The notes under the pieces are model-generated. The model saw only the letters and a list, made by a program, of their open reading frames with translations, had not been told where the DNA came from and made no database searches. Of a stretch of DNA of 60,698 bases, positions 1 to 24,258 are shown piece after piece. Within the stretch, counting starts at the first letter, position 1, and each line of letters begins with the position of its first letter. Position numbers and translations under genes: made by a program. Origin of the DNA: an uncultured Anaerolineaceae bacterium (lineage in GTDB: Bacteria; Chloroflexota; Anaerolineae; Anaerolineales; Anaerolineaceae); contig CAYSFA010000001.1 of NCBI GenBank assembly GCA_964430025.1, positions 1 to 60,698 on the forward strand, read 5' to 3'.

Positions 1-814
1 CCTGTTTAGGGGCAATTGGAACCGGCTGAGTTAGCGTTTTGCTGGAATTCTCTTGCGATTGAAGAGGGAGACTCTCGGTTGAGGAACTTGTTTTTTGTTT
101 TTCTTTCTGGTCCTTTTCTTGGGGGGTAATTTTTCCTACCTGCGATTTCAATTGTTCAACAGAGCGTAACTTTTGCTCTGGCATCTGCATTTTACTGCTG
201 GCATCTTGTGAAGCTTTTTGAAGCTCATTCGCTTTGTCTTTAAACGAACCGCCAATGGACCCGGGCAATATTGATCCTAAAGATCCTAAGATTCCTGAAA
301 ATAATCGCACAAATCCCAATCCTTTTTTTGATTTTTCTTTGGCTTTGTTGGCAGTTTCATCCAGTTTCTGTTTGGTATCATTTTGATTTACCGATTTAAT
401 TTCTGATTTATCCGTTTGATTTGTACTATCGATCATTTGATTTGAAGATGTATTTACTGAAGTAGGACCTCCACTCAACCTAGCCATTTCCTCATCCTTA
501 GCTTTAATGAGAACTCTCTGAACTTCTTGTGACTTTGGTAGTGGCTTTCCTTCTAACAAACATTGATAAACTAACTCATCCTCAGGAATATTGAATCTGA
601 CTAAAAAGCGTTCATTTACATTTCCATCATTCTTAATGCGAATAAGTTTCTTAATTGTCTGATTTTTCCATTTGATCTTAAGAATGACGCGGATTAGGGC
701 AAATGAGATGATGATTGTCAGAACCAAGGCAAGTAAGGAAAAACCTAAAACTATTAATATTCCCAATGTGTCTGGTACGGAATTAAAAATTTTCTCTAAG
801 AATGAATTGATCAT
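1..814 (-). CDS. membrane protein, 3' end off-window (at least 271 aa); one N-terminal TM helix, polar Lys/Gln/Ser-rich tail with a glycine-zipper-like segment
   Basis: Own translation of the minus strand: ATG at 814-812 (MINSFLEKIFNSVPDTLGILIVLGFSLLALVLTIIISFALIRVIL...). I checked that the frame is open down to position 2. It is absent from the ORF track, probably because it has no in-window stop. It is co-oriented with the FHA gene and 37 nt downstream of it. Confidence 0.6.
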   Translation of the reverse strand, partial: MINSFLEKIFNSVPDTLGILIVLGFSLLALVLTIIISFALIRVILKIKWKNQTIKKLIRIKNDGNVNERFLVRFNIPEDELVYQCLLEGKPLPKSQEVQRVLIKAKDEEMARLSGGPTSVNTSSNQMIDSTNQTDKSEIKSVNQNDTKQKLDETANKAKEKSKKGLGFVRLFSGILGSLGSILPGSIGGSFKDKANELQKASQDASSKMQMPEQKLRSVEQLKSQVGKITPQEKDQKEKQKTSSSTESLPLQSQENSSKTLTQPVPIAPKQ

Positions 815-850
815 AATAATATCTCGATAACTAATATAGTTTTATATAAA

Positions 851-1957
851 TCATTCATCTTCATTCTCCATTGGCTCATCTGTTGTTACCTTCAACACCT
901 GAACTTTTGATTTTGGTACAGCTAATTTGGGTTTTCCTCGTTTAAATTCCGCGATTGGATCATTGTGTACCTCAGCGGTAATTGGCTCGTTCTCAGCCCA
1001 CCAATCAACCTCTTCGAGTGTTTCCTTCTTCTCCTCCAAAACTTCAATTTTCTCATCCTGATTATTATTGATTGGTTGACCTTCGGTAGATGGCTGATAA
1101 GGAATTTCTTTCGGCGATTCCTCTTCTAAGGTGGGTGAAAAAGTAATTGGTTGAAGCAATTCTTTTTTCACTTCCTTCCCAATTCCAGGTGTTTCATTTG
1201 GTTCTGGTACCATTTCTAATTGATCTTGCGCATCCGAATCAACATCAACTGTAAACCGGAAAATTGGTTCAACATTCAAAACTACCGGAATAATTACTTC
1301 TTCAGTTGGATAGGCATTAACAGCAAGAACCCTGATTTTAATGGGGCAATAACCTGCAGGTGGTCGCACACCTAAATGAAAAAAGCGAATTTGAAGTTTC
1401 TCCTCCCCACCTGGATACAAAAGTGGAGCTGGATCAATCTGGTAACAATCTGATGGTAATCCCTCCAAATCCATTTCAAATTGGCTTCTTTTTTCCTGCC
1501 CAAAATTCTTAAGGGTGATCAACCCGGTTAATTTCCTTCCTTCTTTAAGATCGAGTGAAGGCATCTCAAACGTAACACCAATATTTTCACTTCGCTTTTC
1601 TAATGAAATTCCATTCGCGGACTGGAGGTAAAAAGTTAATTGAAAGTCACCTAATTTCAGGCTATCTCCATCCTCTAAATTTCTGGATCCTTTGGCAGGA
1701 ACAACTACATTCCCTCTTGCTCCTGCTAACGACAAAGCCAATGGTTCATTCACGAGATTTACCATTTTGAAATTTCGCCTGTCAGTTTGTGTGCTGATAA
1801 GTTGTAGATGAGCACTTGCGACTCCACTTCCATACTCATCAGGAAGGACAATATCATTGAAACCTGCGCTGCCAATCATTGTCAAGGCTTTGGTTATCGG
1901 AAATGTTTTTGCCCATCCATTTCTGTCAATGACGTAAACTGATCCGTTGTAATTCAT
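851..1957 (-). CDS. FHA-domain protein with a central Ig-like (CARDB-like) region and an acidic C-terminal tail
   Basis: N-terminus fits the FHA pattern (TMIGSAGFNDIVLPDEYGSGVASAHLQLI ... NLEDGDSLKLGDFQLTF). The track start at 1969 is TTG. The ATG at 1957 is preceded by GGAG (ttGGAGaaaaccATG), so 1957 is preferred. Confidence 0.6.
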   Translation of the reverse strand: MNYNGSVYVIDRNGWAKTFPITKALTMIGSAGFNDIVLPDEYGSGVASAHLQLISTQTDRRNFKMVNLVNEPLALSLAGARGNVVVPAKGSRNLEDGDSLKLGDFQLTFYLQSANGISLEKRSENIGVTFEMPSLDLKEGRKLTGLITLKNFGQEKRSQFEMDLEGLPSDCYQIDPAPLLYPGGEEKLQIRFFHLGVRPPAGYCPIKIRVLAVNAYPTEEVIIPVVLNVEPIFRFTVDVDSDAQDQLEMVPEPNETPGIGKEVKKELLQPITFSPTLEEESPKEIPYQPSTEGQPINNNQDEKIEVLEEKKETLEEVDWWAENEPITAEVHNDPIAEFKRGKPKLAVPKSKVQVLKVTTDEPMENEDE

Positions 1958-1988
1958 GGTTTTCTCCAAATCATTTCTTCAACTCCAA

Positions 1989-3119
1989 TCAAGCGCCTTT
2001 ATACTTATCTTTCCACCCAAGAATAAATGTAAGCAAGTTTGATCCCCACTCAAAAGCTGTGCGTAATTCTCCTCGGGTTGGTTTGCGATCTTTCGCTTCT
2101 CCATTCCACAAAGCGCCATAATTAAAAGTGCTGAGGACACCACCATTTCCACTCAACCATTCTCCATCAGAAGTAAATCCTTGCGGGACTTCTACAAAGA
2201 AGTATGGTTCGGATAAGAGGGCATCACATTTCAATGCATTTCCTTTCAATTCCAATTGGATTTCTTTCGCAACAGCTTTGAATGAGTCTGCTGCCAGGCT
2301 ATCAACAGCTTCCATGAAAAGAAAACCACCTCGAGTAATATAACCTTGTAATCCTTTCAATTGGGCACTCGTCAGCTTAAATTTTCCAGAACCGACCAGA
2401 TAAATGAAGGCGTTTCCCAATACGCCAGGATCAAGCTGAACATCATCGTTCACAACCAGGTTGATGTGGTCTGATTTCCGAGCTACTTCAGCAAGTCGAA
2501 TCAACCCTTGACCTTGAATCTTTTCATTCACTTCCCCTAAATAAATAACCGCCGAAGTTAATAATTGTTCACTATTTAGTGAAATATTTCTACGGAAACG
2601 TAAATCAATCTCATTAATCTTCGGACCTTTCGCATTATCAGCATCATTGATATTTGAAGTCCGATTTTCTCTTGTGAATCTAGCCAGCTCTACCATAGAT
2701 CTTTCTGGAACCGATTGTCTGGCAGTGATTAAAAATTCATCTTGAAGAAAAGCGAGCCCTGAGCCATCATTATTCTTCTTCAAATTTGTGGTGGATTCAC
2801 GTTGAATGATCGTTAAATACAATGGCCCATCGATCTCATCCCCTAAATCATAGGCAACTGGTTCTGAAAGAACAATCACTTTCCCATAAGGATCGATGGC
2901 GATCCCAGGAAGGATAAATACCATTGAATCAGGGGGATCACTCGCTACTACTTCCAACCCAACCAAAATTCCAGAACCATGGAAGAAAAGGTTGTGAGCC
3001 TGGTTATATTGACGGTGAAAATCATGCGCTTGATTCCAAACATCAGCGGTAACTGACATTCCATCATAAGGTTTGATTCGTTTCTTGGGGAATAAATTCA
3101 ACAAATTCTCAGTGCTCAT
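1989..3119 (-). CDS. hypothetical CIS baseplate-distal protein in the Afp13 (fibre) slot; C-terminal half resembles DUF4159
   Basis: ATGA start/stop overlap with the gpI-like gene. The segment AFIYLVGSGKFKLTSAQLKGLQGYITRGGFLFMEA ... LLSEPYFF ... VLSTFNYGALW recalls the DUF4159 pattern. This is from memory and not computed. No fibre-like repeats or knob motifs are visible. Confidence 0.35.
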   Translation of the reverse strand: MSTENLLNLFPKKRIKPYDGMSVTADVWNQAHDFHRQYNQAHNLFFHGSGILVGLEVVASDPPDSMVFILPGIAIDPYGKVIVLSEPVAYDLGDEIDGPLYLTIIQRESTTNLKKNNDGSGLAFLQDEFLITARQSVPERSMVELARFTRENRTSNINDADNAKGPKINEIDLRFRRNISLNSEQLLTSAVIYLGEVNEKIQGQGLIRLAEVARKSDHINLVVNDDVQLDPGVLGNAFIYLVGSGKFKLTSAQLKGLQGYITRGGFLFMEAVDSLAADSFKAVAKEIQLELKGNALKCDALLSEPYFFVEVPQGFTSDGEWLSGNGGVLSTFNYGALWNGEAKDRKPTRGELRTAFEWGSNLLTFILGWKDKYKGA

Positions 3120-4159
3120 TTGGCATCCTCTCCTTCAAGTAGCTCATTTCTCAGTGTTTCCATAACTTCCAAATTTAATTTAAACGCAGTGTGGGCTGGT
3201 TTTCTATCTTCAATTAATTGAGTTATTCTTTGAATGTAGGCATTTTCGTTTCTGGATCGATCTCTCGCATCCATCCGATTTATCTCCTCTTCATCCACCT
3301 TCACATTAACAGTAAAAGTGTGCGGTAGATTCTGAGAACCTAAAGCGATTGCTCTTCCAAGCTTTGCTTCATTTCCTAATTGAAAATTCTGCGACCTATG
3401 TTCAATAATTTCAACCTGACCATTTGTGTAAATACTCAGGTAATCTTCCATTGAGCTCTTCGTTCCACGTCGCTGGTACATTTGAACTGCAACCTGCAGC
3501 AGATTCCTTTTTCGTTCTTCTGGTAAATTCTCATCCCAGACCACACCTAACCATGATCCCAACCAGGGTAGAAATTCGGATGGTGTGAAAGCTGGGTCAA
3601 AATACAAATCTATCTGATTGATCTGTTGGTTGATTGGCTTCCAGAAACTCTCAAAAAGCATTAAATAACGTCCAATAAAATCCTGGTCGTGGTAAATTTC
3701 TGGTAAATGATTAAGATAACTTCCCTTGGGATGAACCGCTACCCGGATATTCTCACTCGCAACAATTTGTCCTTTTGAATTAATAAGATCCGCTACACTG
3801 ACAAGATAGACCTTACGTACCTGATTTAGAACCTTTGCTTTGATTGTTAATTCAAGAAACTGACCAGGAAGATATTTCTTACCTAAATGCCAATCAACTA
3901 CCTGTGCTGCTTGTTGATCTTTTACGTAGGTATCACCCGTTTCATTTTCATTGATTGAAAACTCAATTAATTCAAGACCTAATGGTAAGGCTATAGAAAG
4001 TATTGAGTTGATATACTCTTTCTTAAACAATACTCTTGTAAAGAAATGAACAATCTCACCCGGGTAGCGACTATAGAAATCAGGCACGAAGGATAAATCT
4101 GGGACTTTTGTATATTCTATTTGATCCTCTACTTCAATAATTGGAAACATTCTGCTCAC
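3116..4159 (-). CDS. CIS baseplate protein, phage P2 gpI-like (Afp12-like)
   Basis: LPEIYHDQDFIGRYLMLFESFWKPINQQINQIDLYFDPAFTPSEFLPWLGSWLGVVWDENLPEERKRNLL is a typical Tail_P2_I core. The GTG start at 4159 overlaps the upstream stop (GTGA). An alternative ATG lies at 4150. Confidence 0.8.
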   Translation of the reverse strand: MSRMFPIIEVEDQIEYTKVPDLSFVPDFYSRYPGEIVHFFTRVLFKKEYINSILSIALPLGLELIEFSINENETGDTYVKDQQAAQVVDWHLGKKYLPGQFLELTIKAKVLNQVRKVYLVSVADLINSKGQIVASENIRVAVHPKGSYLNHLPEIYHDQDFIGRYLMLFESFWKPINQQINQIDLYFDPAFTPSEFLPWLGSWLGVVWDENLPEERKRNLLQVAVQMYQRRGTKSSMEDYLSIYTNGQVEIIEHRSQNFQLGNEAKLGRAIALGSQNLPHTFTVNVKVDEEEINRMDARDRSRNENAYIQRITQLIEDRKPAHTAFKLNLEVMETLRNELLEGEDAK

Positions 4160-6273
4160 TCTCTTTGAATATCTACCAAATCAATAACTGTGACTTCATG
4201 ATCTAAGGAACAGATCAACGCGTTCTCAGGAATCCAGATCACTTTTTCCTCCACGCGTGTAGGATTCGGTCGCTCATCCGGATTAATTGATTCTGTTTTT
4301 GGATTTACCGTTCGGGAAAAAATGTCGGCATCAATGACATACTTAACTCCAGGTACCCTCTGCACTAAAGAGTAGATTTCTGCAGAAAACAGACTCTTTC
4401 CAAAAGTCCAACCTTTCCATCCGGATTCCAGAAGATGATCTCTTTCTTCTATCTCTGGGAAAGGCACTAATGGATTCAAAAAATTGCTTAAGTGTTGTTT
4501 AACTCGTGTCAGAACAGTTCCAGGATTACTGTAATCATCCACGACAATTTTGACATCGACCTTAATGCCCATGTACTCAGGTTCTTTTACCCTCACATGT
4601 GTGGTTAACAACCTGAATTGATCCAGATAATTCCCTAATTCTTCAATGAATAATTGATTTACATAAAGCCTGGAAATATCTCCAACTGCCAATGAATCAG
4701 TCACAGAAGGAACAACCAACATTTCAACAATTCCGAGTTCCCCTCTATTCTTTTCGAGGTTTGGGGTGATACATTTTACCCTTGCTATCGTTCGACTAAA
4801 ATCCAATGCTAATTGTTCAAAATCCTGGGCGGTGACTGCACGTTTTTGCGCTTGTAACTCCCGCTGAGCCCGTAATTTCACCTCATCCAAAGTCTCCTGG
4901 TCTCTTCCACCTGTAGCTCGTACCAGATTTGTAACCCGAGACACGTAAGCAATAGAGGAACTCAATGTATTCAAATTGTTTACTGGTAAATTTCCAATCG
5001 ATCCACCGCCATAGCGATAACTACTGAAATATAACGGTCTACCACTTTCTGGAATTCGGCCATATTGAACAATTGAACCATCTGGTTGGCGTACTGAGGA
5101 TCCAAAAGTAATCGTCGCGGATGCTTCATCCAAAGTGAAATGTCTGTCAAATCGAGTCGATTTGGAAAAATCATGAACCACTTGCCAGGGAACTAAAACG
5201 TTTTCTCCATTTCGAAATTCTTCAACCAAAACAGTCTCGTTCTCTCTCAGCTTTAATACTGGAAATTGTTGTAATTGGAAAGTTTGACCAGGTTCTCCAC
5301 TACTGTTTCCTAAGAATTCCTGATCAATAGACAAAGCGTGGGTGGAAGGGACTGCTGCCCCTATCGAATAGGTTTCAATTCGTTGAACCCGAGGAGATTC
5401 AGTATACATCCCTTGGGAAGGATTTCTTTGTTCAATACGACATCGCACCCAATAAGCATTTTGGCCGCTCACGAGATCTGGTTTTGCTTCTAAAGGAAGA
5501 TACATAACCAGGCTTCCGGTTGGGTTGTTCAGACCACCTGTTGTATCTCTTTCACCCTGGAATTTACTTAGTGGAACTTCCTGCCATTTACCATCTCCCA
5601 TGGAACATTCCCAAACCCAAGGGGGGTCTTCACGCCGTATACCAACTGCCTCAGTAGGTTCACAGGTGAAATTGAACCGTAAAATATGGCCTTTAATATC
5701 ACAGGCTGGAACAGCAGCAATATCATTAACCGGGTCAAAACCTACATAGAAGGTGTCACCTTCTTTTGGATTGTATCGATCAAATGGATAGAATGTCTCG
5801 ATGCCCATTCTGGAAAGGAAATTCTTATTAACCTCTGTTAACTTTCTCAATTGATTCAATTTTGGTGGAAAAATCTCCAACAGTCGATCAGTCGAAAAAA
5901 CCACTTCATCCCCACCAGTCATATCAGAAACGACCTGAAATCCTTTCGGAATAATCACTGATTGCTGGTTGTCATCACTAATAGGAAGGGCAACCGAAAG
6001 CCAAAATGTTAAATCAGTTCTCGCACTGCTTGCAGGTTGAATTTTTAAACCTAATAATTCCAGAAATTTGATATAGTTTTTATCCGGGACACGATTTAAC
6101 CGATAAACCATCAATTCTGTCATCCAGGCGAACAGCTCAACCAAAGTGATTCCAGGATCGCTCAAATTATAATCAGTCCATTCTGGACAATACTGAATGA
6201 TTCTCTTTCTCGCCTCATCCACCAGGTCTTTTTGAAATCTTAGATCGTCTAAATTCGGGGTTGGTAACGGCAT
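4156..6273 (-). CDS. CIS baseplate protein, baseplate-J / T4 gp6-like (Afp11-like)
   Basis: N-terminus PLPTPNLDDLRFQKDLVDEARKRIIQYCPEWTDYNLSDPGITLVELFAWMTE is characteristic of baseplate-J assembly proteins. RBS AGGAG lies 7 nt upstream of the ATG. Position follows gp25 and PAAR. Confidence 0.85.
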   Translation of the reverse strand: MPLPTPNLDDLRFQKDLVDEARKRIIQYCPEWTDYNLSDPGITLVELFAWMTELMVYRLNRVPDKNYIKFLELLGLKIQPASSARTDLTFWLSVALPISDDNQQSVIIPKGFQVVSDMTGGDEVVFSTDRLLEIFPPKLNQLRKLTEVNKNFLSRMGIETFYPFDRYNPKEGDTFYVGFDPVNDIAAVPACDIKGHILRFNFTCEPTEAVGIRREDPPWVWECSMGDGKWQEVPLSKFQGERDTTGGLNNPTGSLVMYLPLEAKPDLVSGQNAYWVRCRIEQRNPSQGMYTESPRVQRIETYSIGAAVPSTHALSIDQEFLGNSSGEPGQTFQLQQFPVLKLRENETVLVEEFRNGENVLVPWQVVHDFSKSTRFDRHFTLDEASATITFGSSVRQPDGSIVQYGRIPESGRPLYFSSYRYGGGSIGNLPVNNLNTLSSSIAYVSRVTNLVRATGGRDQETLDEVKLRAQRELQAQKRAVTAQDFEQLALDFSRTIARVKCITPNLEKNRGELGIVEMLVVPSVTDSLAVGDISRLYVNQLFIEELGNYLDQFRLLTTHVRVKEPEYMGIKVDVKIVVDDYSNPGTVLTRVKQHLSNFLNPLVPFPEIEERDHLLESGWKGWTFGKSLFSAEIYSLVQRVPGVKYVIDADIFSRTVNPKTESINPDERPNPTRVEEKVIWIPENALICSLDHEVTVIDLVDIQRE

Positions 6274-6306
6274 ACCTGATCTCCTAATTGGTTCAATAAT
6301 CGATAA

Positions 6307-6720
6307 TTACCAGTTTTCTTCCTCTTCCAGGAAGAAAGGATAAACAATACTGCGCACATCATGAGTCGCTTTAATTTCATAATTAATTTCTACCTGGAGA
6401 GAGCCATCCAAGTCATCATCCATTAAAACTTCAACCTGCAACACCTGAATTCTTGGTTCCCAAAAATTTAAAGCATCCAGAACATATTTCTTCAGTAAAC
6501 TGGCTGTGGTTGCATCTCGTACTTCAAACAATAGATCATGTGCTTTGCATCCAAAGGTCGGTCGCATTACCCGTTCACCTGGTCTGGTACCAAGGATGAT
6601 ACGAATAGATTGTTCGATATCTTCCGCACCACTAACAAGCGCTATCTCTCCACGAGTGTTCACCTTCATTGGAAAAGCAAGCCCAGTTCCTAAATATGCT
6701 TTTCGTAAATCTTTCGTCAT
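6307..6720 (-). CDS. baseplate wedge protein, GPW/gp25 family (Afp9-like)
   Basis: IEQSIRIILGTRPGERVMRPTFGCKAHDLLFE matches the gp25 lysozyme-like fold motif; 137 aa. Confidence 0.9.
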   Translation of the reverse strand: MTKDLRKAYLGTGLAFPMKVNTRGEIALVSGAEDIEQSIRIILGTRPGERVMRPTFGCKAHDLLFEVRDATTASLLKKYVLDALNFWEPRIQVLQVEVLMDDDLDGSLQVEINYEIKATHDVRSIVYPFFLEEEENW

Positions 6721-6738
6721 ATCAATTTCATTCCTTTT

Positions 6739-7029
6739 TTATCCACCGATCAACACATTAGGTTGGCCTTTAGCCACCACTGTAGAAACAGGCACACCAG
6801 TTGCAGGGTTTGATCCGGCAACCTGACTGGTCATTCGCGCCGCCGGTCTACCACCAATGAGGACAGTCATGCTTCCCATCACGATCGATCCCATACAAGC
6901 TGCCCCGCTGACCATATCACCAACAACCGATGCCGGAAGTCCACCAATCAAGACATTGGCTACACCAGGTCCAGTGATAGCATCTCCGGTTGCGGTCATA
7001 TCTGATACTCTTGCTGCTGGAAAACTCAT
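6739..7029 (-). CDS. PAAR-domain spike-tip protein (Afp10-like)
   Basis: Two literal PAAR motifs (FPAARVSD, RPAARMTS), Gly-rich, 96 aa, immediately downstream of the spike gene. RBS is AGGAGAG. Confidence 0.9.
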   Translation of the reverse strand: MSFPAARVSDMTATGDAITGPGVANVLIGGLPASVVGDMVSGAACMGSIVMGSMTVLIGGRPAARMTSQVAGSNPATGVPVSTVVAKGQPNVLIGG

Positions 7030-12527: not shown

Positions 12528-12536
12528 AATCTATCT

Positions 12537-14973: not shown

Positions 14974-15006
14974 TTTCATGCTCCTTTCTAGTGATTAATG
15001 TTTTAT

Positions 15007-16665
15007 TTACTCTGAGCCCGGGCCAGCCCATTGACTAATCCGGAAGATAACAAATTCTGCTGGTTTGACTGGTGCCATACCAATTTCAATGATCAAACGA
15101 CCTAAATCCCGTGATTCTGGTGGATTTAACTCATCATCACACTTGACATAGAAAGCTTCATCAGGTGAACTTCCGAATAATGCGCCATCACGCCATACCA
15201 TCTTCAGGAAGGCGGTTGCATCTCTGCGAACTCTTGCCCAAAGTTTCCGATCATTCGGTTCGAAAACAACCCATTGAGTTCCATTTTCAATGGATTTCTC
15301 AACATAGTTGAATAACCGACGAACGTTTATATACCGCCAAGAAGGATTGCTGGAAAGCGTTCTTCCACCCCATACTCGGATTCCCCGTCCCGGGAAACTG
15401 CGAACAACATTTACACCGATTGGGTTGAGTGTATCTTGTTCACCTTTTGTGGTTTGATAACCAAGACCAACTGCTCCAAGCACGACTTCATTTGCAGGGG
15501 CTTTGTGGACACCACGGGTATTGTCATTGCGTGCCCATACACCTGCCATATGCCCTGAAGGTGGAATTGCAATAACTTTATTGGTAACTGGATCCATTAC
15601 CTCAATCCAGGGATAATAAAGTGCGCCATAGCTGGAATCATATCCTGCTGTGTTCATTCGCCAATTCTTGATTTCCTGAGGGCTCATATTTGGCGGAGCA
15701 TCCAAAATCGCAACACGATCGCCCAAGCGTTCACAATGGGCAAGCATCATGGATTGAACACCTTTAACCATATCCATGTCTAGTTTTTGACCAGGCATTA
15801 CAGTCATCAAATCAGGAACACAAACCATTGTGACATCATCAAGAACTTCTAGCCCTTCCACACCGCTTCGTTTCGTGACATCGCCCTGAAACTCGGTTGG
15901 GGTTGGGGGAGGTAAAAGGGATTTCTCAATCGTGAGGACCTGTTCCTGTTCTTTTGGCACAAGCTGGGTGACTGTTGCTTTGTCATTGGTAACAACTAAC
16001 TCCACTAATTTTGAGAATTTGTTGTTTTTATAGGCTACTCCAACTTTCTTCTCGCCATTGACCGACATATCCTGCAATTGGACTTCTTTGAGTGTTTCTA
16101 CTACTTTCCAGGATGTGTCTGATTTTTCTTGTTCCACAAAAAGTGTGAAGCTGGTTCCACCATCTCCTTCACCAGCTACATCTTCTTCAACTTTGCCTTC
16201 TTCATCTTTAGAAGATTTTTTGGTTGTGGAAGCAGGTGCAGGAAGGAATACATCACCAACACGAACTCTAATGCGCATACCTTCTGTCCCAGAAGTGCGT
16301 GCGCGTGCAGTTAATGCTGGTTTTCCTTGTTGGTTCAGTAAGGTTGCTTCAGCTTTGGGGAATGTCCGAACGCTGACTACATAACATCGTGAACCACCAT
16401 TCATAAAATAACCATAAATTGCTTGAGGAAGATACGCTCCTGACACAAAACTTCCATATCTTTCAACGTATTGGGTCCAATTAGTAACGAGTTGGGGTTT
16501 ATTTAATAAATTCTCAACTAATTGTTCTCCATCTACCTCGCGAACCATCTCTGCTTTTTCAGTGAAACCAACAAAAGCAGCCATCGCGGTACCAACACCT
16601 TCAATTGGCTTCGGACCACGATCTACTTCTTCAACATAAACTCCTGGTGATAAATATTCTGGCAT
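15007..16665 (-). CDS. contractile sheath protein (Afp2/3/4-like); only sheath gene in the locus
   Basis: MPEYLSPGVYVEEVDRGPKPIEGVGT is the hallmark sheath N-terminus. The C-terminal domain has GVNVVRSFPGRGIRVWGGRTLS. 552 aa. Confidence 0.95.
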   Translation of the reverse strand: MPEYLSPGVYVEEVDRGPKPIEGVGTAMAAFVGFTEKAEMVREVDGEQLVENLLNKPQLVTNWTQYVERYGSFVSGAYLPQAIYGYFMNGGSRCYVVSVRTFPKAEATLLNQQGKPALTARARTSGTEGMRIRVRVGDVFLPAPASTTKKSSKDEEGKVEEDVAGEGDGGTSFTLFVEQEKSDTSWKVVETLKEVQLQDMSVNGEKKVGVAYKNNKFSKLVELVVTNDKATVTQLVPKEQEQVLTIEKSLLPPPTPTEFQGDVTKRSGVEGLEVLDDVTMVCVPDLMTVMPGQKLDMDMVKGVQSMMLAHCERLGDRVAILDAPPNMSPQEIKNWRMNTAGYDSSYGALYYPWIEVMDPVTNKVIAIPPSGHMAGVWARNDNTRGVHKAPANEVVLGAVGLGYQTTKGEQDTLNPIGVNVVRSFPGRGIRVWGGRTLSSNPSWRYINVRRLFNYVEKSIENGTQWVVFEPNDRKLWARVRRDATAFLKMVWRDGALFGSSPDEAFYVKCDDELNPPESRDLGRLIIEIGMAPVKPAEFVIFRISQWAGPGSE

Positions 16666-16776: not shown

Positions 16777-17625
16777 TTAGACACTAATTTCCAAAAAGGG
16801 ATTTGGAACAACAAATTTTTCATGCCTCAAAATCCTATCATTGAAAGAAATATCAAGATGATAGGTACCTTGCGTTAATTTAAGAAGCGCAAATTCACCA
16901 TTTTCTAAAACGGGAATTTCTTTTCCTGTTTCTTTCAGTACTAGCTTTAAGGTAACCGGTGAATATTTCTGACTATTTACTTTTCCCCGAACGGAGAAAT
17001 AAGACTTGGAATCGACTAATTTCGCATTCGGATCATCGAATTTTTGACGGTCTGGATCAGGATTTTGTTTGAACCGAACTTCTGAAGTAGCAACTCTGGG
17101 AGAGGTCACAGGTTTATATGGATCAATCGTCAAAGTGACAGTCAAACGAATTCCAGGGTGGGGATCATTGTCAATCATCCCCCAAAAATCTGATAATTTT
17201 TGTAAGCTTTTGCTTTGGCCCACCTCCAATCGAACGGGAACAGGTTGGTTTTTCAGGTTATCTGGAAGCATCTCTTCCGGTATGTAAGCTTGTCGAAGTA
17301 AAGTTGTTAAGGCGGCTGCTAGTAGTTGCTGCTCATCTTGAATTTCTTTCGCCCAGCTAGTTATCAGATAGTAATAATTCATCCGTACCGGATTCCGATG
17401 TAGAGTAACTGTTCCATCCCCATTGTCTGTTTGAGTCCACTGTTCAGAGCCTCTTAATTCAATGTTTTCTAAAATATCGTACATATAAATATTTAGTGTT
17501 GGCTTACTTAACCGGGATGACCATTCCTTCTTGGGAATTTCGAATTGAATATCAACATCGCCTTTCCGAACTGGCATTTCACTGAGAAGCAGCTTCCGTA
17601 AAGCTTCATTCAACTCATAGATCAT
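16777..17625 (-). CDS. DUF4255 (Pvc16_N) tail terminator/cap protein (Afp16-like)
   Basis: MIYELNEALRKLLLSEMPVRKGDVDIQFEIPKKEWSSRLSKPTLNIYMYDILEN matches the DUF4255 N-terminal pattern as I recall it. It overlaps the upstream gene by 11 nt. Confidence 0.75.
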   Translation of the reverse strand: MIYELNEALRKLLLSEMPVRKGDVDIQFEIPKKEWSSRLSKPTLNIYMYDILENIELRGSEQWTQTDNGDGTVTLHRNPVRMNYYYLITSWAKEIQDEQQLLAAALTTLLRQAYIPEEMLPDNLKNQPVPVRLEVGQSKSLQKLSDFWGMIDNDPHPGIRLTVTLTIDPYKPVTSPRVATSEVRFKQNPDPDRQKFDDPNAKLVDSKSYFSVRGKVNSQKYSPVTLKLVLKETGKEIPVLENGEFALLKLTQGTYHLDISFNDRILRHEKFVVPNPFLEISV

Positions 17626-18200: not shown

Positions 18201-21200
18201 TTAGAGCTTTGATAATTTCGATTTTATTAATGCAGTGGCTGCGGCTTCATCCTCGTCAATCCAGGAGGTATAAGAGGTAGTATCTCCTAAATTAATTAGG
18301 TTGATTTTCAAAACATTCACGACAAATTCAGCCGCTTTCTTGCTTGTGTTGGCATCCGAACTCCTTAGCAAGCCGATCAGATTTGTAGCCTGAGTATTTA
18401 ACTCAGAATCACTGGGCTTATTTTTCTTTTCTGCAATCATCTGTCCAATGCCACCAAGAATCCCTAAACCACTCATAGCTGCACCAGCAATTCCTAAGCC
18501 AAAACCACCTTCTTTTGACATTCCAGCCAAGCTACCAATACCACCAATCGTACCTAAGCCACTTCCAAGAAATGAAGTAACAGATTTAAAAATTCCGAAC
18601 CCTTTTCCTGTCTTATTCTGATTCTTTGCGGTAAATTGAGCAATCGCGTTCATTTTAACTTCATCGCTCGTTAATGCCCCACTAGCGGGAGCTGCTTTGA
18701 TGAATCCTTTGGCGGCACTACTTCTTTTCCTGGCGCTGTGCATCGAAGCGCTGCCTTTGCCCAATCCTAGTCCGGAACCTATCATCCCAAAGAAGCCACC
18801 AGCCACACCAAGGCCACTGGAAGCTTTGTCAGCACTATCTCCTGAAGGATCATTGGCTTTGATAACATTGCCTGAAAAACTCGAACCACTACTCGCCATA
18901 CCAAAAACTGATTGTGAAATTCCCCATCTTCCGCGGGATTTTTCTTTTTCTCCGTATAGTTTTGACGCTTTGGAACTGTTTTTGTCCGACATTTTGCTGC
19001 CACGCCGTAGTTGAGAAATACTGCCCAACAATGATCCACTGGAAGCCAGGAAATTTCCCGCGTCTGCAGCCGCGCTGGTACCAGCTCCAGCCCTGTCCAA
19101 TGTTTCATTATCCCCCGTACCCTTGGAAAGACTGGTAATTGACCCCGCCAACCCAACGCTACTAAGAACGGTATCTGTTGCGCCATGTCCTGTTACTTCC
19201 CCAATTTTATCCATGGCATTTTCTTTTTTGTCTCTTCTGAACTTCGCATTATTGATTGCTTTTTGTATCTCAGGAATTGTGGATTTCGAAAGAGCATCAC
19301 CTCGTATTAGTGCCCCTAATCCATTCCAGTAGGAAGGGGACATTTGAGGATAAGCATCTTTTATTTTCTTCCAATCAGCTGCGGAAGAGATATCCCGTTC
19401 ACCACCATCCAATGGCCATATCCCAGATACTGCTGCTGCCCCTAATTCACCTAATTGAGCATCATTTAATCCAAATTCCAGAAGATAACCTCTTCTTTCA
19501 TTGCTTGTGATTTTTGTCCAATTTGATAAACTCAATTTAAGTTTAGAAGTAATGTTTGTGAAAATTCCATCATCCTTAATTGGATTTCTGTTTTTGTCAA
19601 GCGGCCAATTTCCCTGGAGAGCTAGTACCACCAAATCTCCAATGTAAGATTTAGTGCCATTAGATAATAGAAAACTTCTTTGGTCTTTGTCAGCTATGGA
19701 AAGCCATTTTGCTAATGAAATTTTCAAAGTTTCGGTGATTGTTTTGAATTTATTATCGTCCAGGATATCCTGGTCACTTTCACCTTTTGGCCAACTACTT
19801 TGAAGAACAAGTTTGACTAATTCTCCTATGTAAGTCATTGAACTATTATCGAGCAGGAATCCTCTTCTTTCTTTCGTAATAGATAGCCAATTTGTCAAGG
19901 ATATTTTCAGGCTGTTAGTGATTTTAGTTAAATTACCATCATCAAAAATAAGTGCATCACTGCCATCTTTCGGCCATTTTCCTTGAATAACCATCCCAGC
20001 TAATTCAATAGCGTAAGATTTAATTCCATTATCAAGAAGACATTTTCTTTTGTTAAGATCCGTAATTCCCATCCAATTATTAATGGAAAGTTTAAAGGTT
20101 TTTGTCAGTAGACTTAATTTTTCATCGCTTAAAATTTCTTGATCATTTCCATCCTTTGGCCATTTGTTGGATAAAGCCAATGACACTAGTTCTGTAGCAT
20201 ATGGTTTAGTGCCGTTCTCCAAAAGGAATTTTCTTTGGGGTAAATTCGAAATATTAAGCCATTGATCAAGGGTAATATTCAAGGATTTTGTGATAATGTT
20301 GAATGAATTTGCATCCATGATATCCTGATCATTCCCGTCTTTTGGCCATTTACCCTGGAGAGCTAAATTCAATAATTGTTTTACGTATGGTTTTGTACCA
20401 TTCTGTAACAGGAAACCTCTTTGTTTTATCTCGCTAATCGTTTGCCATTGATCCAAAGCAATATTCCATGTAACAGTGATTAATTTATATGAATTTTCAT
20501 TAAGGATTTCCTGATCATTGCCATCTTTTGGCCATTTTGCTGCAAGTGCCAACTCTGCTAATTTAACCGCATACAGCTGTGCACTATTTTTCAACAGGAA
20601 GTCTCTCTGTTTTTTATCTGAAATGGTTTGCCACTTATCTAAAGAAATTTTCAGGGTGTCAGTGATAGTCTTAATGATATTCTCATCAAGAATGAACTGA
20701 TCATTTCCATCTTTTGGCCAATTACCCTGAAGGGCCAAATCAAATAATGTTTTTGCAAAAGGTTTCGTTCCATTCCCTAAGAGGAACCCTCTTTGGGTTT
20801 TTTCCATAATCGAGACCCATTGATTCAAGGTTTTTCCAAGTACCTCAGTGATGGTTTTGTAGCTATTCTCATCAGAGATATCCTGATCGTTACCATCTTT
20901 CGGCCAATTCTTAGTTTTAGCAAGTGCGATTAGATCCTGGATAAATGTTTTATCTTTCAAATCTATTAACAATTTTTTGTAAGGTGCATCCAATGTTGCC
21001 CAATCAGCGAAAGATACTTTTAGAGTTTCTATAATGATTCTCAATTTTGTTATCCCAGTTATCTCTGCACCAGATTCATCTTTTGGCCATTGTGATGCTT
21101 TCAATGCTGTGACTAACATTTGTGCTATCGCTGGATCCGATTTAACTAAATCCATTATTATTTTCTGTTTCTCTTGGGGAATGTTGTCCCAATCAGCTTG

Positions 21201-22064
21201 ATCCAACACACCTGCGCCTTGCACCAAGGCTAAATCCGCTGGGCTCAGACCTGGTTTGGGAGCTGGAGCTGGGGTTGAGGTTGTTTGGGATGGTGGAGTT
21301 GTGCCTTGCGGAGGAGTAGTGTTGGTTTGGGTCCCTCCCTTTGAGAATACACCACCGATTTTTGATTTTATTCCAGCCATTGTTAAACGTTGAACAGTAT
21401 CAGGGGTGGTGGAAGTAACCCCTTGAGATTGTCGTTGCCCAGATTTAGCAAATCCTTCTGCCTCATGTTCAAATTTATCATTTGGATCCCCTAACTTCAA
21501 TGGCCCATTCGATGCAGAACCGGAGGATTGTTGTACCACATGAGTCAACTCATGCATAAGAGTATCACGTCCTTCTTCTGAGTTGGGAGAGTAAGCTCCT
21601 TTTCGGAAGAAGATATCATTACCAATTGTGAAAGCTTTGGCTTGGATTTTCCGGCTGACAGTATCTGCCCGTTGATCAGCATGCAAACGAACATTTTCAA
21701 AACTTTTCCCAAATTTTGATTTCATCTGTTCAGAGACATCTGCCTGTAACGGTTGCCCGCCAGATTTTGCTCGTTGAATTTCATTGGTCACATATTTATT
21801 CAAAAACCCAGTCTGATCAACTACTGGATCTTCTGTTTTAGCAGGTTGAATTATTCTTCTTACTTCATTATTTCCATAGCGGTTTTGTAACGTTTGAATC
21901 ACCTGTGGAGTGGATTCCATCGGAGATTTAACTGCATGGATCAATTGGTCCACTGATTCAAATTGATTCTGAATCAGCTGTGGTTTCGAAAACTCATGTT
22001 TTTGGATATCATGTTCCTGATTCTTTTCCTTACTTTTCAGGTGTTCATTTTGAGTTTTTGCCAT
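18201..22064 (-). CDS. DUF4157 zinc-metallopeptidase-like (HEXXH) protein with ten ~62-aa repeats and a Gly/Ser-rich glycine-zipper C-terminal region; candidate CIS cargo/effector
   Basis: The DUF4157 core GGQPLQADVSEQMKSKFGKSFENVRLHADQRADTVSRKIQAKAFTIGNDIFFRKGAYSPNSEEGRDTLMHELTHVVQQ has HELTH at nt 21540-21554. It is followed by a Pro/Thr linker, then 10 WP(K/L)(D/G) repeats, then GxxxG-rich hydrophobic segments. ATG at 22064 (track GTG at 22070). Overlaps the ATPase gene's 3' end by 20-26 nt. Confidence 0.85.
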   Translation of the reverse strand: MAKTQNEHLKSKEKNQEHDIQKHEFSKPQLIQNQFESVDQLIHAVKSPMESTPQVIQTLQNRYGNNEVRRIIQPAKTEDPVVDQTGFLNKYVTNEIQRAKSGGQPLQADVSEQMKSKFGKSFENVRLHADQRADTVSRKIQAKAFTIGNDIFFRKGAYSPNSEEGRDTLMHELTHVVQQSSGSASNGPLKLGDPNDKFEHEAEGFAKSGQRQSQGVTSTTPDTVQRLTMAGIKSKIGGVFSKGGTQTNTTPPQGTTPPSQTTSTPAPAPKPGLSPADLALVQGAGVLDQADWDNIPQEKQKIIMDLVKSDPAIAQMLVTALKASQWPKDESGAEITGITKLRIIIETLKVSFADWATLDAPYKKLLIDLKDKTFIQDLIALAKTKNWPKDGNDQDISDENSYKTITEVLGKTLNQWVSIMEKTQRGFLLGNGTKPFAKTLFDLALQGNWPKDGNDQFILDENIIKTITDTLKISLDKWQTISDKKQRDFLLKNSAQLYAVKLAELALAAKWPKDGNDQEILNENSYKLITVTWNIALDQWQTISEIKQRGFLLQNGTKPYVKQLLNLALQGKWPKDGNDQDIMDANSFNIITKSLNITLDQWLNISNLPQRKFLLENGTKPYATELVSLALSNKWPKDGNDQEILSDEKLSLLTKTFKLSINNWMGITDLNKRKCLLDNGIKSYAIELAGMVIQGKWPKDGSDALIFDDGNLTKITNSLKISLTNWLSITKERRGFLLDNSSMTYIGELVKLVLQSSWPKGESDQDILDDNKFKTITETLKISLAKWLSIADKDQRSFLLSNGTKSYIGDLVVLALQGNWPLDKNRNPIKDDGIFTNITSKLKLSLSNWTKITSNERRGYLLEFGLNDAQLGELGAAAVSGIWPLDGGERDISSAADWKKIKDAYPQMSPSYWNGLGALIRGDALSKSTIPEIQKAINNAKFRRDKKENAMDKIGEVTGHGATDTVLSSVGLAGSITSLSKGTGDNETLDRAGAGTSAAADAGNFLASSGSLLGSISQLRRGSKMSDKNSSKASKLYGEKEKSRGRWGISQSVFGMASSGSSFSGNVIKANDPSGDSADKASSGLGVAGGFFGMIGSGLGLGKGSASMHSARKRSSAAKGFIKAAPASGALTSDEVKMNAIAQFTAKNQNKTGKGFGIFKSVTSFLGSGLGTIGGIGSLAGMSKEGGFGLGIAGAAMSGLGILGGIGQMIAEKKNKPSDSELNTQATNLIGLLRSSDANTSKKAAEFVVNVLKINLINLGDTTSYTSWIDEDEAAATALIKSKLSKL
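19290..21150 (-). repeat. in-frame tandem coding repeat, 10 units, central units exactly 186 nt (62 aa)
   Basis: The conserved core tggccaaaagatgg (plus strand ...ccatcttttggcca) ends at 21089, 20906, 20720, 20534, 20348, 20162, 19976, 19793, 19617 and 19417. Spacings are 183, 186, 186, 186, 186, 186, 183, 176 and 200 nt. The outer boundaries of the array are approximate. Confidence 0.85.
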
Positions 22065-24258
22065 TTCCACCTTCCTTTTGCGTCAATAACAGATCCTTAT
22101 CCTGGACCAATCTACCCATTTTTTGCATTTCCCTGCGAATTGCGTGAAGCAAATGCTGATTCGAAACATACGAGTTCTCACTCGCGGCTAGAAATGATGC
22201 GCTGATTATGACATTTCTAATCGAGCCACCGGTTAGTTTAAAACGATCACCTAATTCATTCAAATCAATATCCTCAGCCAGTGGGACTTCAGCGGGGAAT
22301 AATACTTTCCAGATCTTTTGTCTTTCCTTCTCATCTGGGAATGGAAAATCAACGATAAATTGAATTCGGCGGGTAAAAGCTTCATCCATGTTCGAACGGA
22401 GATTGGTCGCCAGGATGACTACTCCATCGTACGTCTCCATACGTTGGAGTAAATATCCTACTTCGATATTGGCATAGCGATCATGAGCGTCTTTTACCTC
22501 TGACCGTTTTCCAAAAATAGAATCAGCTTCATCAAAGAATAGAATTGCATTGCTGTTTTTTGCCTGGCTAAAAATCCTCTCTAAATTCTTTTCCGTTTCA
22601 CCAATATATTTACTAACAACGGTAGAAAGATCAATTTTGTACAAATCCATTCTCAATTCAGCTGCGATAACTTGTGCTGCAAGAGTTTTGCCAGTTCCTG
22701 GTGGACCTGCAAATAAAGCCGACACACCTGCATAAGGCATTAATCTTTTCCCTACTCCCCATTCATCCAAAACCACTGATCGCCAACGAATAGTATTCGC
22801 TAATTCACGCAGAGATTGAATTCCATCTTCAGGGAGAACTATATCTTCCCATTTATATCTGGGTTGAATTTTTGTTGCCAACGTATTCAGATGATGGCTG
22901 GAATAAAACCTGGCTGCTTCATATAAATCATCAATTGTGGTGGGCATTCCTTTACTGATAGCAAGATCTTGTGCAGAAAAAGCAACATTCTGGATCTGAC
23001 TGGCCGAAAGGTTAAACTGATTTGCGAAAATCTCTAATTCCTGGTCATCAATACGAGAATTGTCGCCAAGATATTCCTTCCAAATATTTAGTCGTTTCCC
23101 ACCAGGAGGATTTACACAATTCAGCCAGAATACAGGCTTGTTGTTTTCTTTTTGATTTCGAAGGATTGGCCAATTCTTTTCCTGATGAACTAGAACTGTA
23201 TCCTCAAAGTTTAAGAATTGTTGGAAGAAAGTATCGATTTCTTCATTGGTATTAAAAACAGCATCCAACCCGGTGATCATAGGAATTGCACCAGACAATT
23301 TCACATCCCTCATGAATATTCTGAATAAATCATTTTTTGATTGATCGTTGATCTGTAATTTATCCAGCTCTAGAACCAATAATGATTGTTCTTGTTTGGC
23401 AGCGATGTGATCAGAAATGTACTGCTTTTGTAATACATCATGACCATAAAGAATAATGATTGGTTTTTGTTTCAGAACAAAGTCCAATCCCTCAGGAAGA
23501 TCGAAAATTTCTGAGGTTCTGTTATTCATTGTAGGTGCTATCAAAGTTAAGCCTTCAGCAAGATATTTATCCGGTTGAAATTCACCAATTAACCATGAAA
23601 TAACCTCACCTGGAACGATGTAATTTTGCTTTAATATTGGCTTTTCGGCAGATTGAATATCTGAATAATTTCTGATCAGGTGGTTCTTGATCAAAGTCGA
23701 TGATTTATTAAAATACTTCAGATAAGTAAGTTTTTCAAAATCCGGTTTTAACAACAAATCAAAGATTAAAGAAATACTCGCGTACTTAGTGGTGACATCA
23801 TCATGTAGAAATCCAAAAATTTTCTCATAACGAGTATCCAACATAGGAGACAGGCAAACCAGAAAAGCATTAAATTCAAATTCGGATAAATTAAATAAAT
23901 TTCTAAATTCTTCAAGTTTTAATTTCTTGTTTTCAACCGAAGCTTGTGTCTTAATTCGGTCGATTTCCTCCGCAACCTGTTTTCTCAAATGAGTAAATTG
24001 TTGAATTTCTTCTTCTGGTAATGAACTGATCGACCCCCAATTTCCACCGATTGGTTGTTCGAGTACTTTCTGAATTGTTCCTTCTGAAATAAATAAACCC
24101 CTGAAATTTTCCGAGAAATTCAGACCGGCCAATTCCCAGCGCCGTATAGCTTCTCGAATATGCAAATCAATTTTTAGTAAATATAAATGCAAATACTGAA
24201 AATTTATATGCATTAAATTTTCAATATTGTCATCACTTTTCCAATATGTGTCTTCCAC
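22045..24258 (-). CDS. AAA+ ATPase (Afp15/Pvc15-like), first gene of the CIS operon
   Basis: C-terminal AAA module has Walker A GPPGTGKT and Walker B AILFFDEADSIF, preceded by a long N-terminal domain. GTG start at 24258 with GAAGGA 6 nt upstream. Confidence 0.85.
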   Translation of the reverse strand: MEDTYWKSDDNIENLMHINFQYLHLYLLKIDLHIREAIRRWELAGLNFSENFRGLFISEGTIQKVLEQPIGGNWGSISSLPEEEIQQFTHLRKQVAEEIDRIKTQASVENKKLKLEEFRNLFNLSEFEFNAFLVCLSPMLDTRYEKIFGFLHDDVTTKYASISLIFDLLLKPDFEKLTYLKYFNKSSTLIKNHLIRNYSDIQSAEKPILKQNYIVPGEVISWLIGEFQPDKYLAEGLTLIAPTMNNRTSEIFDLPEGLDFVLKQKPIIILYGHDVLQKQYISDHIAAKQEQSLLVLELDKLQINDQSKNDLFRIFMRDVKLSGAIPMITGLDAVFNTNEEIDTFFQQFLNFEDTVLVHQEKNWPILRNQKENNKPVFWLNCVNPPGGKRLNIWKEYLGDNSRIDDQELEIFANQFNLSASQIQNVAFSAQDLAISKGMPTTIDDLYEAARFYSSHHLNTLATKIQPRYKWEDIVLPEDGIQSLRELANTIRWRSVVLDEWGVGKRLMPYAGVSALFAGPPGTGKTLAAQVIAAELRMDLYKIDLSTVVSKYIGETEKNLERIFSQAKNSNAILFFDEADSIFGKRSEVKDAHDRYANIEVGYLLQRMETYDGVVILATNLRSNMDEAFTRRIQFIVDFPFPDEKERQKIWKVLFPAEVPLAEDIDLNELGDRFKLTGGSIRNVIISASFLAASENSYVSNQHLLHAIRREMQKMGRLVQDKDLLLTQKEGGNGKNSK

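Follow-up and report, generated by a model that had tools for sequence, protein, structure and literature searches.

The closest described relatives of the gene cluster analyzed here are the contractile injection systems (CIS) of subtype IId. In Streptomyces coelicolor, the genes of this subtype are arranged in the order sco4259 (ATPase), sco4256-58 (effectors), sco4253 (sheath), sco4245-43 (baseplate) and sco4242 (cisA, a membrane accessory gene), and the published IId cluster lacks an Afp13 fiber (PMC10066040, PMC10020575, PMC12237407). The particles are intracellular in Streptomyces (PMC10066040) and in Roseiflexus, other Chloroflexota and Deinococcota (PMC12998442); for the latter group, Gaisin et al. 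2026 identify the cluster also in a metagenome-assembled genome (MAG) of the Aggregatilineales, report no close homolog of cisA and leave the docking mechanism open (PMC12998442). The locus in question occupies positions 1-24258, on the minus strand, of a 60,698-bp contig from an uncultured Anaerolineaceae bacterium (the window, that is, the whole stretch of DNA that was analyzed) and represents a single, tightly packed operon of 21 genes encoding a complete CIS. The host belongs to the Anaerolineae (Chloroflexota), the class in which we take the Aggregatilineales to be an order, and is regarded here as filamentous. Sequence comparison assigns the system to the known IId lineage; the gene set that it carries in place of fibers, encoding a predicted baseplate adaptor, an FHA protein and membrane proteins, is previously undescribed and is probably a module for docking to the cell's own membrane or a trigger module.

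Searches against solved structures point to Streptomyces for each of the four informative components. The sheath protein matches Streptomyces CIS sheaths over its full length (8bky, 1e-161; 8bl4, 1e-158), with the next-best hits to the haloarchaeal sheath, from a system resembling type VI secretion systems (T6SS; 7e-116), the thylakoid-anchored CIS (tCIS) of Anabaena (5e-56), and the Photorhabdus virulence cassette (PVC) and antifeeding prophage (Afp) sheaths (about 1e-48, over the C-terminal half only), so that, of the solved sheaths, only the two from Streptomyces are closer than the haloarchaeal group. Cis11 likewise shows a full-length match to the Streptomyces Cis11 chain 9gtp_1K (8.4e-111), the best solved match of Cis12 is Streptomyces Cis12 (9gtp_E, 2e-12, covering residues 150-246 only), and the best PDB match of the cap is the Streptomyces Cis16 chain 9gts_0A (9.9e-25). 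In terms of bit scores against the S. coelicolor system (CIS-Sc), the sheath reaches 542 and Cis11 374, both over the full length, compared with at most 194 for tCIS, AlgoCIS, PVC and Afp. Because the sheath, Cis11, Cis12 and the cap are each closest to Streptomyces CIS, we drop the label of an Afp/PVC-type extracellular system that the original prediction had given to this operon. The system is best assigned to the Streptomyces-type "cytoplasmic CIS" lineage, subtype IId, an assignment that combines similarity ranking with the literature and is not based on a tree.

The gene order agrees with this assignment. It runs from the ATPase through the cargo, cap, sheath, tubes, LysM initiator, spike, gp25, Cis11 and Cis12 to an accessory gene and includes no Afp13 fiber. 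Apart from supplying the best solved relatives of the four proteins mentioned above (8bky, 9gtp, 9gts), CIS-Sc has a single sheath, no Afp13, a filamentous multicellular host and the same chromosomal succession of ATPase, effectors, sheath, baseplate and accessory membrane protein. Three features had been listed as unusual, namely, the 5' location of the genes for the ATPase, cargo and cap, the presence of only one sheath gene and the missing Afp13 fiber; given that all three are the published norm of IId (PMC10066040, PMC12237407, PMC10020575), they are not. The Afp and PVC systems (subtype Ia) have the core components in common with the window, among them the Cis15 ATPase, the Cis16 cap and DUF4157-type cargo; they differ from the window in having three sheath paralogs (Afp2-4), an adenovirus-like Afp13 fiber, and the ATPase and cap at the 3' end, as opposed to one sheath and a 5' ATPase and cap. 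The window differs from CIS-Sc as well, in having a PAAR gene, which S. coelicolor lacks, three tube paralogs rather than two, a 949-aa protein in the tape-measure position and a Cis12 with an additional N-terminal domain. Thus, the novelty originally claimed for this locus largely dissolves, and what remains new is the adaptor-FHA-membrane module and a predicted recoding site.

All parts by which extracellular CIS (eCIS) are catalogued (dbeCIS/Geller 2021) are present, namely, a sheath, a gp19 tube, a wedge of gp25, Baseplate_J and Tail_P2_I, and a VgrG spike, as are the Cis15 AAA+ ATPase, the Cis16 (DUF4255) cap and an associated DUF4157 protein. No product of the window has a Pfam match to the TssB/C, Hcp, ClpV or TssJLM families, in agreement with the original identification of a CIS cluster distinct from a canonical T6SS. 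There are at least 8000 homologs of the sheath; the best 120 listed are 72-92% identical to it, and the named ones among these come from Anaerolineae/Chloroflexi MAGs. A genome scan with Cis11 detects 43 loci (related loci and contigs are designated by L numbers below), nearly all from Anaerolineae and Caldilineae, including the isolate Ornatilinea apprima P3M-1 (L034). The actinomycete loci L037 and L039 are distant members of this set, and the core gene order in L039, from Actinoplanes, is identical to that of the window.

Directly after Cis12, where a fiber gene would be expected, the operon encodes the predicted adaptor. The original prediction recognized no Afp13-type fiber, which is correct as far as Afp13 goes; the slot, however, is not empty. 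An AlphaFold model of the adaptor, built from an alignment of 45 sequences, consists of two domains (predicted local distance difference test, pLDDT, 87.6). The C-terminal domain is similar to the crystal structure of a DUF4159 protein, 4i66 (Foldseek, 3.6e-8), and adopts a flavodoxin-like/GATase1-like fold. The N-terminal 190 or so residues resemble the shoulder of TssK (5y0e, 5mwn, 6n38; Foldseek, 1.7e-6 to 2.4e-4), with the probability of 1.0, template modeling (TM) scores of 0.2-0.3, which reflect partial coverage, and 13-16% identity; this match is confined to the N-domain, the TssK head being unrelated. Foldseek also relates the N-domain to Francisella IglD, and further matches are to phage receptor-binding and fiber proteins and to the crown protein Cis19 (All3314) of the Anabaena tCIS (7b5h_AA, fold match of 8e-4 plus weak sequence similarity). 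The NCBIfam profile CIS13_fam matches residues 18-112 (4.9e-8). A PDB search with the sequence of the DUF4159 protein alone yields nothing useful, and a profile search is swamped by spurious matches to de novo TIM barrels, so that the identity of the N-domain is resolved only by structure comparison. At 50% identity, this family falls into at least 294 clusters, with the same two-domain length.

In the T6SS, TssK links the baseplate to the membrane complex. The adaptor of the window lineage is strictly associated with an enlarged Cis12. The adaptor gene directly follows Cis12 in all 34 complete related loci with a long Cis12 (at least 319 aa) and is missing from all six loci with a short one (e.g., L031, L035 and L037); the Cis12 of the window contains an extra N-terminal domain of about 145 aa that the 190-aa Streptomyces Cis12 lacks. 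Cis12 (Tail_P2_I) has been termed TssG-like, and a 2026 catalogue describes shoulder domains ("eBAP3/4") whose genes come after those for Tail_P2_I, an arrangement that it compares to TssK-TssG (PMC12923769); the window shows the eBAP3-type arrangement, with a shoulder-like N-domain of about 200 aa encoded right after the Tail_P2_I gene. The similarity to TssK-TssG (5y0e, 5mwn, 6n38) accordingly covers both the shoulder fold and the position after a TssG-like gene (PMC12923769); the differences are that TssB/C, Hcp, ClpV and TssJLM are absent from the window and from the downstream genes of its relatives and that the head is DUF4159 instead of the TssK head. The eBAP3/eBAP4 fibers (PMC12923769) and Cis19 (7b5h) share the shoulder-like N-domain after Tail_P2_I; compared with eBAP3/eBAP4, the C-terminus of the window adaptor is a compact DUF4159 domain and not a lectin, Ig or collagen shaft. 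A literature search retrieved no paper linking DUF4159 to a CIS, and neither Geller 2021 nor a 2025 metagenome CIS survey mentions Chloroflexi, FHA or DUF4159. Elsewhere, DUF4159 proteins are often encoded together with VWA/MoxR (Bat-type) genes. A MoxR-like ATPase, judged by eye from the translation, is encoded just downstream of locus L009, which may or may not be a coincidence.

The operon is cut by the end of the contig, inside a gene for a transmembrane (TM) protein, and continues beyond it in the relatives. Exact-sequence look-ups with the FHA protein of the window, starting at either TTG or ATG, matched no contig, and the 3' end was therefore reconstructed from loci L001, L002, L041 and L044, in which the order is adaptor, FHA plus beta-sandwich protein (368 aa), two-TM protein (370 aa), a giant protein of 2090 aa and a Peripla_BP_6 lipoprotein; the DUF4159-like, FHA and membrane proteins with which the operon was originally said to end are thus followed by further genes. 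The membrane protein itself was correctly recognized, given that the truncated window gene encodes an N-terminal TM helix; its full-length orthologs have one TM helix at each terminus. The giant protein has an FHA domain at its N-terminus, followed by beta-sandwiches, only one TM helix (at residues 390-408) and some 20 Ig domains of the Big_3_5 family. For the soluble FHA protein, the match of the window sequence to Yop-YscD_cpl is below the Pfam threshold (E = 1.5e-3); 28 of the 35 family members match this profile, and the N-terminal domain in the AlphaFold model superposes on the FHA domains of MDC1, GarA, OdhI and Rv0020c with TM-scores of 0.63-0.82 (Foldseek). The originally proposed FHA fold is therefore borne out by the family and the model, with the window protein itself sub-threshold in Pfam. 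Of the residues that bind phosphothreonine in canonical FHA domains, Gly-Arg is replaced by an invariant Gly29-Ser30 in this family, and the Ser of Ser-x-x-His, expected three positions ahead of His50, is not conserved; the FHA domain of the giant protein likewise has Gly-Ser and no conserved Ser. A comparably degenerate FHA domain is present in SctD/YscD, the ring protein of the type III secretion system (T3SS). Phospho-signaling of the T6SS Fha/PpkA type was considered as the principal explanation and rejected: the Arg and Ser needed for binding are missing from both FHA domains, and the cluster has no linked kinase.

The arrangement with FHA, TM and giant proteins after the adaptor is found in 18 loci, a few of them cut short or with only some of the parts detected. 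In the Caldilineae loci L018 (15624-19502) and L022 (17379-20102), the two-TM protein is replaced by a VWA/Ig membrane protein of 900-1300 aa. Another 16 loci, including that of Ornatilinea, encode a different protein of 540-565 aa with an N-terminal TM helix after the adaptor. The contigs nearest to this second group, from a sister clade, have a Peripla_BP_6 gene directly upstream of the ATPase gene and in the same orientation; the giant FHA-Ig protein is encoded ahead of it in L047 (1-4882) and L049 (1-4797), and in L048 (3661-4926) Peripla_BP_6 alone is recognizable, the two preceding proteins having no Pfam match. In L044 (13452-21066), the pair of giant and Peripla_BP_6 genes follows the baseplate genes. 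Given that this pair is relocated between the two ends of the operon and yet remains linked to it, a functional tie can be argued. The CisA protein of Streptomyces combines a disordered cytoplasmic N-terminus, a TM helix and a binding-protein-like C-terminal domain; no window protein has such an architecture (the two are set apart by description), and in place of CisA the window and its relatives have the FHA and TM proteins and, in the relatives, the separate Peripla_BP_6 lipoprotein. The binding-protein-like domain of CisA is extracytoplasmic, a possible functional parallel to this lipoprotein (PMC12237407).

With moderate confidence, we propose that these genes encode a IId particle that is docked to the membrane via the adaptor and the FHA/TM proteins. 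The particle would assemble in the cytoplasm and, having no fibers, would carry trimers of the TssK-like shoulder protein on the enlarged Cis12 at the baseplate's outer edge. The DUF4159 heads would contact the membrane partners, namely, the FHA plus beta-sandwich protein, the two-TM protein, the giant bitopic protein and the Peripla_BP_6 lipoprotein. The giant protein is predicted to have the topology of the T3SS protein SctD: its FHA domain would lie in the cytoplasm, one TM helix would cross the membrane, and some 20 Ig domains would be extracellular. The baseplate would thus be held against the cytoplasmic membrane from the inside, and firing would be coupled to a cue from the envelope or from outside the cell, supplied by the long extracellular Ig stalk and the lipoprotein. 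On contraction, the VgrG-PAAR spike would be driven across the cell's own membrane together with the possibly membrane-active DUF4157 protein, and the outcome could be either the regulated death of a filament cell, as in Streptomyces, or, in the manner of a T6SS, delivery to a neighbor. The present results also lend real support to the earlier suggestion of a possibly cell-associated or membrane-anchored lineage.

Membrane adaptors encoded beside baseplate genes have precedents in CisA (PMC12237407), Cis13 of the tCIS (PMC8894136) and the haloarchaeal Hbor_38620 (PMC11566945). Both the haloarchaeal T6SS-like CIS (9ezm; PMC11566945) and the thylakoid-anchored CIS of Anabaena (PMC8894136) are phage-tail-like and act while anchored to an internal membrane face via adaptors encoded in the cluster; their anchors differ from the present ones, consisting of the six-TM Hbor_38620 and a TM helix on Cis13, neither with FHA or DUF4159. 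The IId CIS that Gaisin et al. (2026, PMC12998442) describe from Roseiflexus, other Chloroflexota and Deinococcota share with the window the subtype and the phylum, and their particles are intracellular, as proposed for the window system; they differ, in a comparison by description only, in that a TssK/DUF4159, FHA and TM module is not described and the particles are unattached (PMC12998442). A broader proposal, in which the five components form a new envelope-spanning docking and trigger complex for T6SS-like firing upon contact or stress in filamentous Chloroflexota, a counterpart of CisA with independently evolved anchoring, accompanied by a tail chaperone produced by a conserved -1 frameshift at G GGG GGG (see below), is put forward only tentatively.

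Several observations weigh against membrane docking. Docking is deduced only from fold, gene position and linkage. Classic kinase/phosphothreonine signaling appears unlikely because, judging by their sequences, neither FHA domain has the Arg and Ser required for binding. The profile of the DUF4159 protein family shows weak, distant similarity to IFT52, whose domain we take to be a GIFT domain, a putative sugar binder, so that the DUF4159 head could be receptor-binding. TssK-like shoulder domains also anchor the fibers of genuine eCIS ("eBAP3"; PMC12923769). In Roseiflexus, the sole member of the Chloroflexota imaged to date, IId particles are free in the cytoplasm (PMC12998442). Finally, the architecture of a beta-sandwich followed by a TM helix resembles the described Streptomyces effectors Sco4256-58 (PMC10020575), so that the membrane proteins could be cargo.

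Two alternatives build on these observations. In the first, which we consider rather unlikely, the operon encodes a classical eCIS that is freed by lysis, the adaptor is a mini-fiber whose head binds a glycan on the target surface, and the role of the FHA and TM genes lies in the regulation of production or release and not in docking. The hallmark genes for Cis15, Cis16 and DUF4157 would fit such a system, and the location of the adaptor in the fiber slot after Tail_P2_I is that of eBAP3 fibers, which include "minimal attachment-only modules" (PMC12923769); the match of its N-domain to phage receptor-binding proteins and the similarity to IFT52 point in the same direction. The head, however, has a flavodoxin-like/GATase1-like fold rather than that of a lectin or an Ig-type binding domain, there are no holin, endolysin or release genes in or beside the operon in the window and its relatives, and the closest characterized relatives are not released and act inside the cell (PMC10066040, PMC12998442). 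A free eCIS also leaves unexplained why proteins with cytoplasmic FHA domains and TM helices stay linked to the cluster through rearrangement. The second alternative, a free-floating cytoplasmic CIS, like CIS-Sc and that of Roseiflexus, which fires under stress and has no stable anchor, seems improbable; the FHA, two-TM and giant proteins would then be membrane-targeting effectors or immunity-like factors equivalent to Sco4256-4258 (a PapD-like domain, one TM helix and a variable C-terminus). The IId affinity of the sheath and Cis11 agrees with this possibility, homologs of Sco4256 are reported in IId clusters of filamentous Chloroflexi (Vladimirov et al., PMC10020575), and in the giant protein, a TM helix comes after a beta-sandwich (150-408), a region with weak matches near the more distant IId-like loci L031, L032 and L042. 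The likeness to Sco4256, however, rests on description and not on sequence comparison, a bitopic protein as long as 2090 aa, with some 20 Ig domains outside the cell, is implausible as tube cargo, and the TssK-like adaptor with its strict coupling to the extended Cis12 is left unaccounted for. A defective prophage tail or R-type tailocin, to which the phage-type sheath, tube and baseplate domains and two short IMG/VR contigs with sheath relatives might point, can be dismissed, as in the original prediction, given that the AAA+ ATPase, DUF4255 cap and DUF4157 are CIS-specific, that neither the 60.7 kb nor the flanks of the relatives contain head genes (capsid, portal), terminase, integrase or a lysis cassette, and that these flanks vary among close relatives, whereas the cluster itself is present across Anaerolineae and Caldilineae.

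Apart from the docking module, the operon contains a probable recoding site. The 123-aa open reading frame (ORF) in the position of a tail assembly chaperone is present in all related loci that cover this position, with 55-95% identity (63% in Actinoplanes), and ends in a run of eight G residues (13549-13556) that contains a G GGG GGG slippery site and is the sole G or C homopolymer of eight or more in the whole window. The following DUF6760-like frame is in the -1 phase relative to this ORF and has no ATG, GTG or TTG start in the window; a start codon is missing also in more than half of the loci that cover the junction. The run of seven or eight G (G GGG GGG) is retained in 27 of the 30 sequences over the junction (29 related loci and the window), across a GC content of 39-65%; the exceptions are L029, with only six G, and L037 and L039, with none. 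GGG accounts for only 18% of the glycine codons in the operon, and the sole GGG-GGG among its 40 Gly-Gly pairs is the slippery site, which lies directly upstream of the gene in the tape-measure position. The same -1 frameshift signature is used by tail assembly chaperones of phages (lambda G/GT, P2 E/E+E'). These features make it probable that a programmed -1 frameshift fuses the 123-aa ORF and the DUF6760 frame into a predicted product of about 174 aa. Literature searches produced nothing on DUF6760 and nothing relevant on a frameshifted tail chaperone in CIS.

All long ORFs in 1-24258 are on the minus strand. There are 18 complete ORFs of at least 96 aa in 851-24258, a 19th that runs off the left end of the window and two small ones. 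The junctions are overlaps of 4, 4, 11 and 26 nt or gaps of 9-36 nt, except for two gaps of 106 and 111 nt that flank the tube and sheath genes. The ORF layout and the Pfam matches agree with the original description of a co-oriented, packed CIS operon, and every domain motif named there is reproduced by Pfam, apart from that of the FHA protein, recovered through its family and model. All structural domain calls in the following table are Pfam matches above the gathering cutoff, again with the exception of FHA.

Table. Genes of the IId-type CIS operon, in the order of transcription
Feature	Coordinates	Strand	Basis
Cis15-type AAA+ ATPase, N-terminal winged-helix and single AAA domain	22045..24258	-	Pfam AAA 1.3e-28, WHD 7.7e-28
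Putative cargo/effector, 1289 aa, DUF4157/eCIS_core HEXXH (residues 107-184)	18201..22070	-	Pfam eCIS_core 4.2e-28
YbjN-like protein, 189 aa	17615..18184	-	Pfam YbjN 1.7e-4, 22.3 bits vs cutoff 22
Cis16 cap/tail terminator (Pvc16_N = DUF4255)	16777..17625	-	Pfam 9.1e-29; best PDB match 9gts_0A
Single contractile sheath protein	15007..16665	-	Pfam Phage_sheath_1 and 1C
Inner tube protein, gp19 type	14527..14979	-	Pfam Phage_T4_gp19 1.1e-34
Second gp19-type tube paralog	13947..14420	-	Pfam Phage_T4_gp19 2.9e-17
123-aa protein, tail-assembly-chaperone position	13541..13912	-	No Pfam/NCBIfam match
DUF6760-homologous reading frame	13386..13568	-	DUF6760 Pfam matches on L046 and L047 orthologs
Conserved 51-aa ORF	13202..13357	-	Orthologous ORFs of 43-56 aa in L046-L050
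Third gp19-type tube paralog, N-terminal extension, Cis1b/Cis5-like tube initiator layer	12537..13181	-	Pfam Phage_T4_gp19 1e-29
949-aa K/S/P/E/Q-rich low-complexity protein, tape-measure position	9678..12527	-	No Pfam/NCBIfam match; composition
Cis7 tube initiator, C-terminal LysM	8935..9651	-	Pfam CIS_tube 1.3e-23, LysM 3.6e-6
Cis8 VgrG-like spike	7060..8919	-	Pfam Phage_base_V 2.5e-24, Phage_GPD 4.4e-9
PAAR spike tip	6739..7029	-	Pfam PAAR_motif 4.5e-15
Cis9 gp25-like sheath initiator	6307..6720	-	Pfam GPW_gp25 2.4e-26
Cis11 baseplate wedge (Baseplate_J)	4156..6273	-	Pfam 1.6e-13; full-length match 9gtp_1K
Cis12 (Tail_P2_I) with extra ~145-aa N-terminal domain	3116..4159	-	Pfam Tail_P2_I 1.9e-16; NCBIfam CIS12_fam 7e-28
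Predicted peripheral baseplate adaptor, fiber slot: TssK/phage receptor-binding-protein shoulder (~1-190) and DUF4159 head	1989..3119	-	AlphaFold, Foldseek, Pfam DUF4159 28.9 bits vs 25.9 cutoff
Soluble protein: degenerate FHA (1-~115), PapD/Cep192-like beta-sandwich (~120-230), disordered acidic tail	851..1969	-	
Membrane protein of ~370 aa, 5' part only (271 codons), N-terminal TM helix	1..814	-	Cut by contig end

The ATPase gene is the first gene of the operon, as it is in the relatives L046-L050. The protein in the tape-measure position varies in length from 634 to 941 aa in the relatives, and its last 30 or so residues alone are conserved (55-66% identity over the C-terminal stretch). It is unlike the helical tape measures of phages and also unlike the DUF4157-bearing Tme of S. 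davawensis (PMC11126660). The 51-aa ORF, located between the chaperone genes and the third tube paralog, has a conserved basic C-terminus (...LLKRKLREENERLPR).

The 1289-aa DUF4157 protein is likely to be a cargo of the system. Residues ~328-930 consist of ten tandem repeats, each about 62 aa long and with WPKDGNDQ-like motifs at its end; a search for tandem repeats in the DNA is uninformative on them, the repeats being too diverged at this level. Its C-terminal part (~960-1230) is rich in Gly, Ser and Ala and includes 12 GxxxG glycine-zipper motifs in the last 270 or so residues, compared with one in the first 960, which suggests a role in membrane insertion or pore formation. In the subgroup of close relatives to which the window belongs, the DUF4157 gene is always followed by a gene for a YbjN-like protein of 175-189 aa; L046 (1996-9025) has two tandem pairs of a DUF4157 and a 187-aa protein, and the pair in L050 is at 5664-9032. 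Members of the sister clade have shorter DUF4157 proteins and no YbjN-like partner. The YbjN family is related to T3SS chaperones. The YbjN-like protein is possibly a chaperone or adaptor of the DUF4157 protein, and the pair has the appearance of a cassette in which an effector is combined with a chaperone or immunity protein.

The other 36 kb (24.8-60.7 kb of the window) contain ordinary chromosomal genes for sugar metabolism, transport and redox functions, with no head, terminase, packaging, integrase or lysis genes among them. Directly upstream of the operon, 24837-27647 encode two proteins, a membrane methyltransferase of the PEMT/ICMT-like type and an M23 peptidase that is secreted and contains Ig, FN3 and PPC domains. 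These two genes were considered as a lysis or release module; this possibility was dropped given that the closest relative, L050, has unrelated genes in this position, and they are probably unrelated to the operon. Rfam and tRNA scans of the window gave no matches, and promoter and terminator scans gave counts at or below the expectation from shuffled sequence and were not used.

If confirmed, the predicted frameshift would extend the recoding signal of phage tail chaperones to non-viral injection systems. How cytoplasmic CIS reach and puncture the membrane is an open question, to which CisA provides an answer for Streptomyces only. The operon family described here offers candidate docking or trigger proteins for the Chloroflexota, with a cultured carrier available in Ornatilinea apprima. 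Anaerobic digesters, sediments and activated sludge harbor Anaerolineae in abundance, and a device for regulated death or for the killing of neighbors could matter there for the ecology of flocs and granules.

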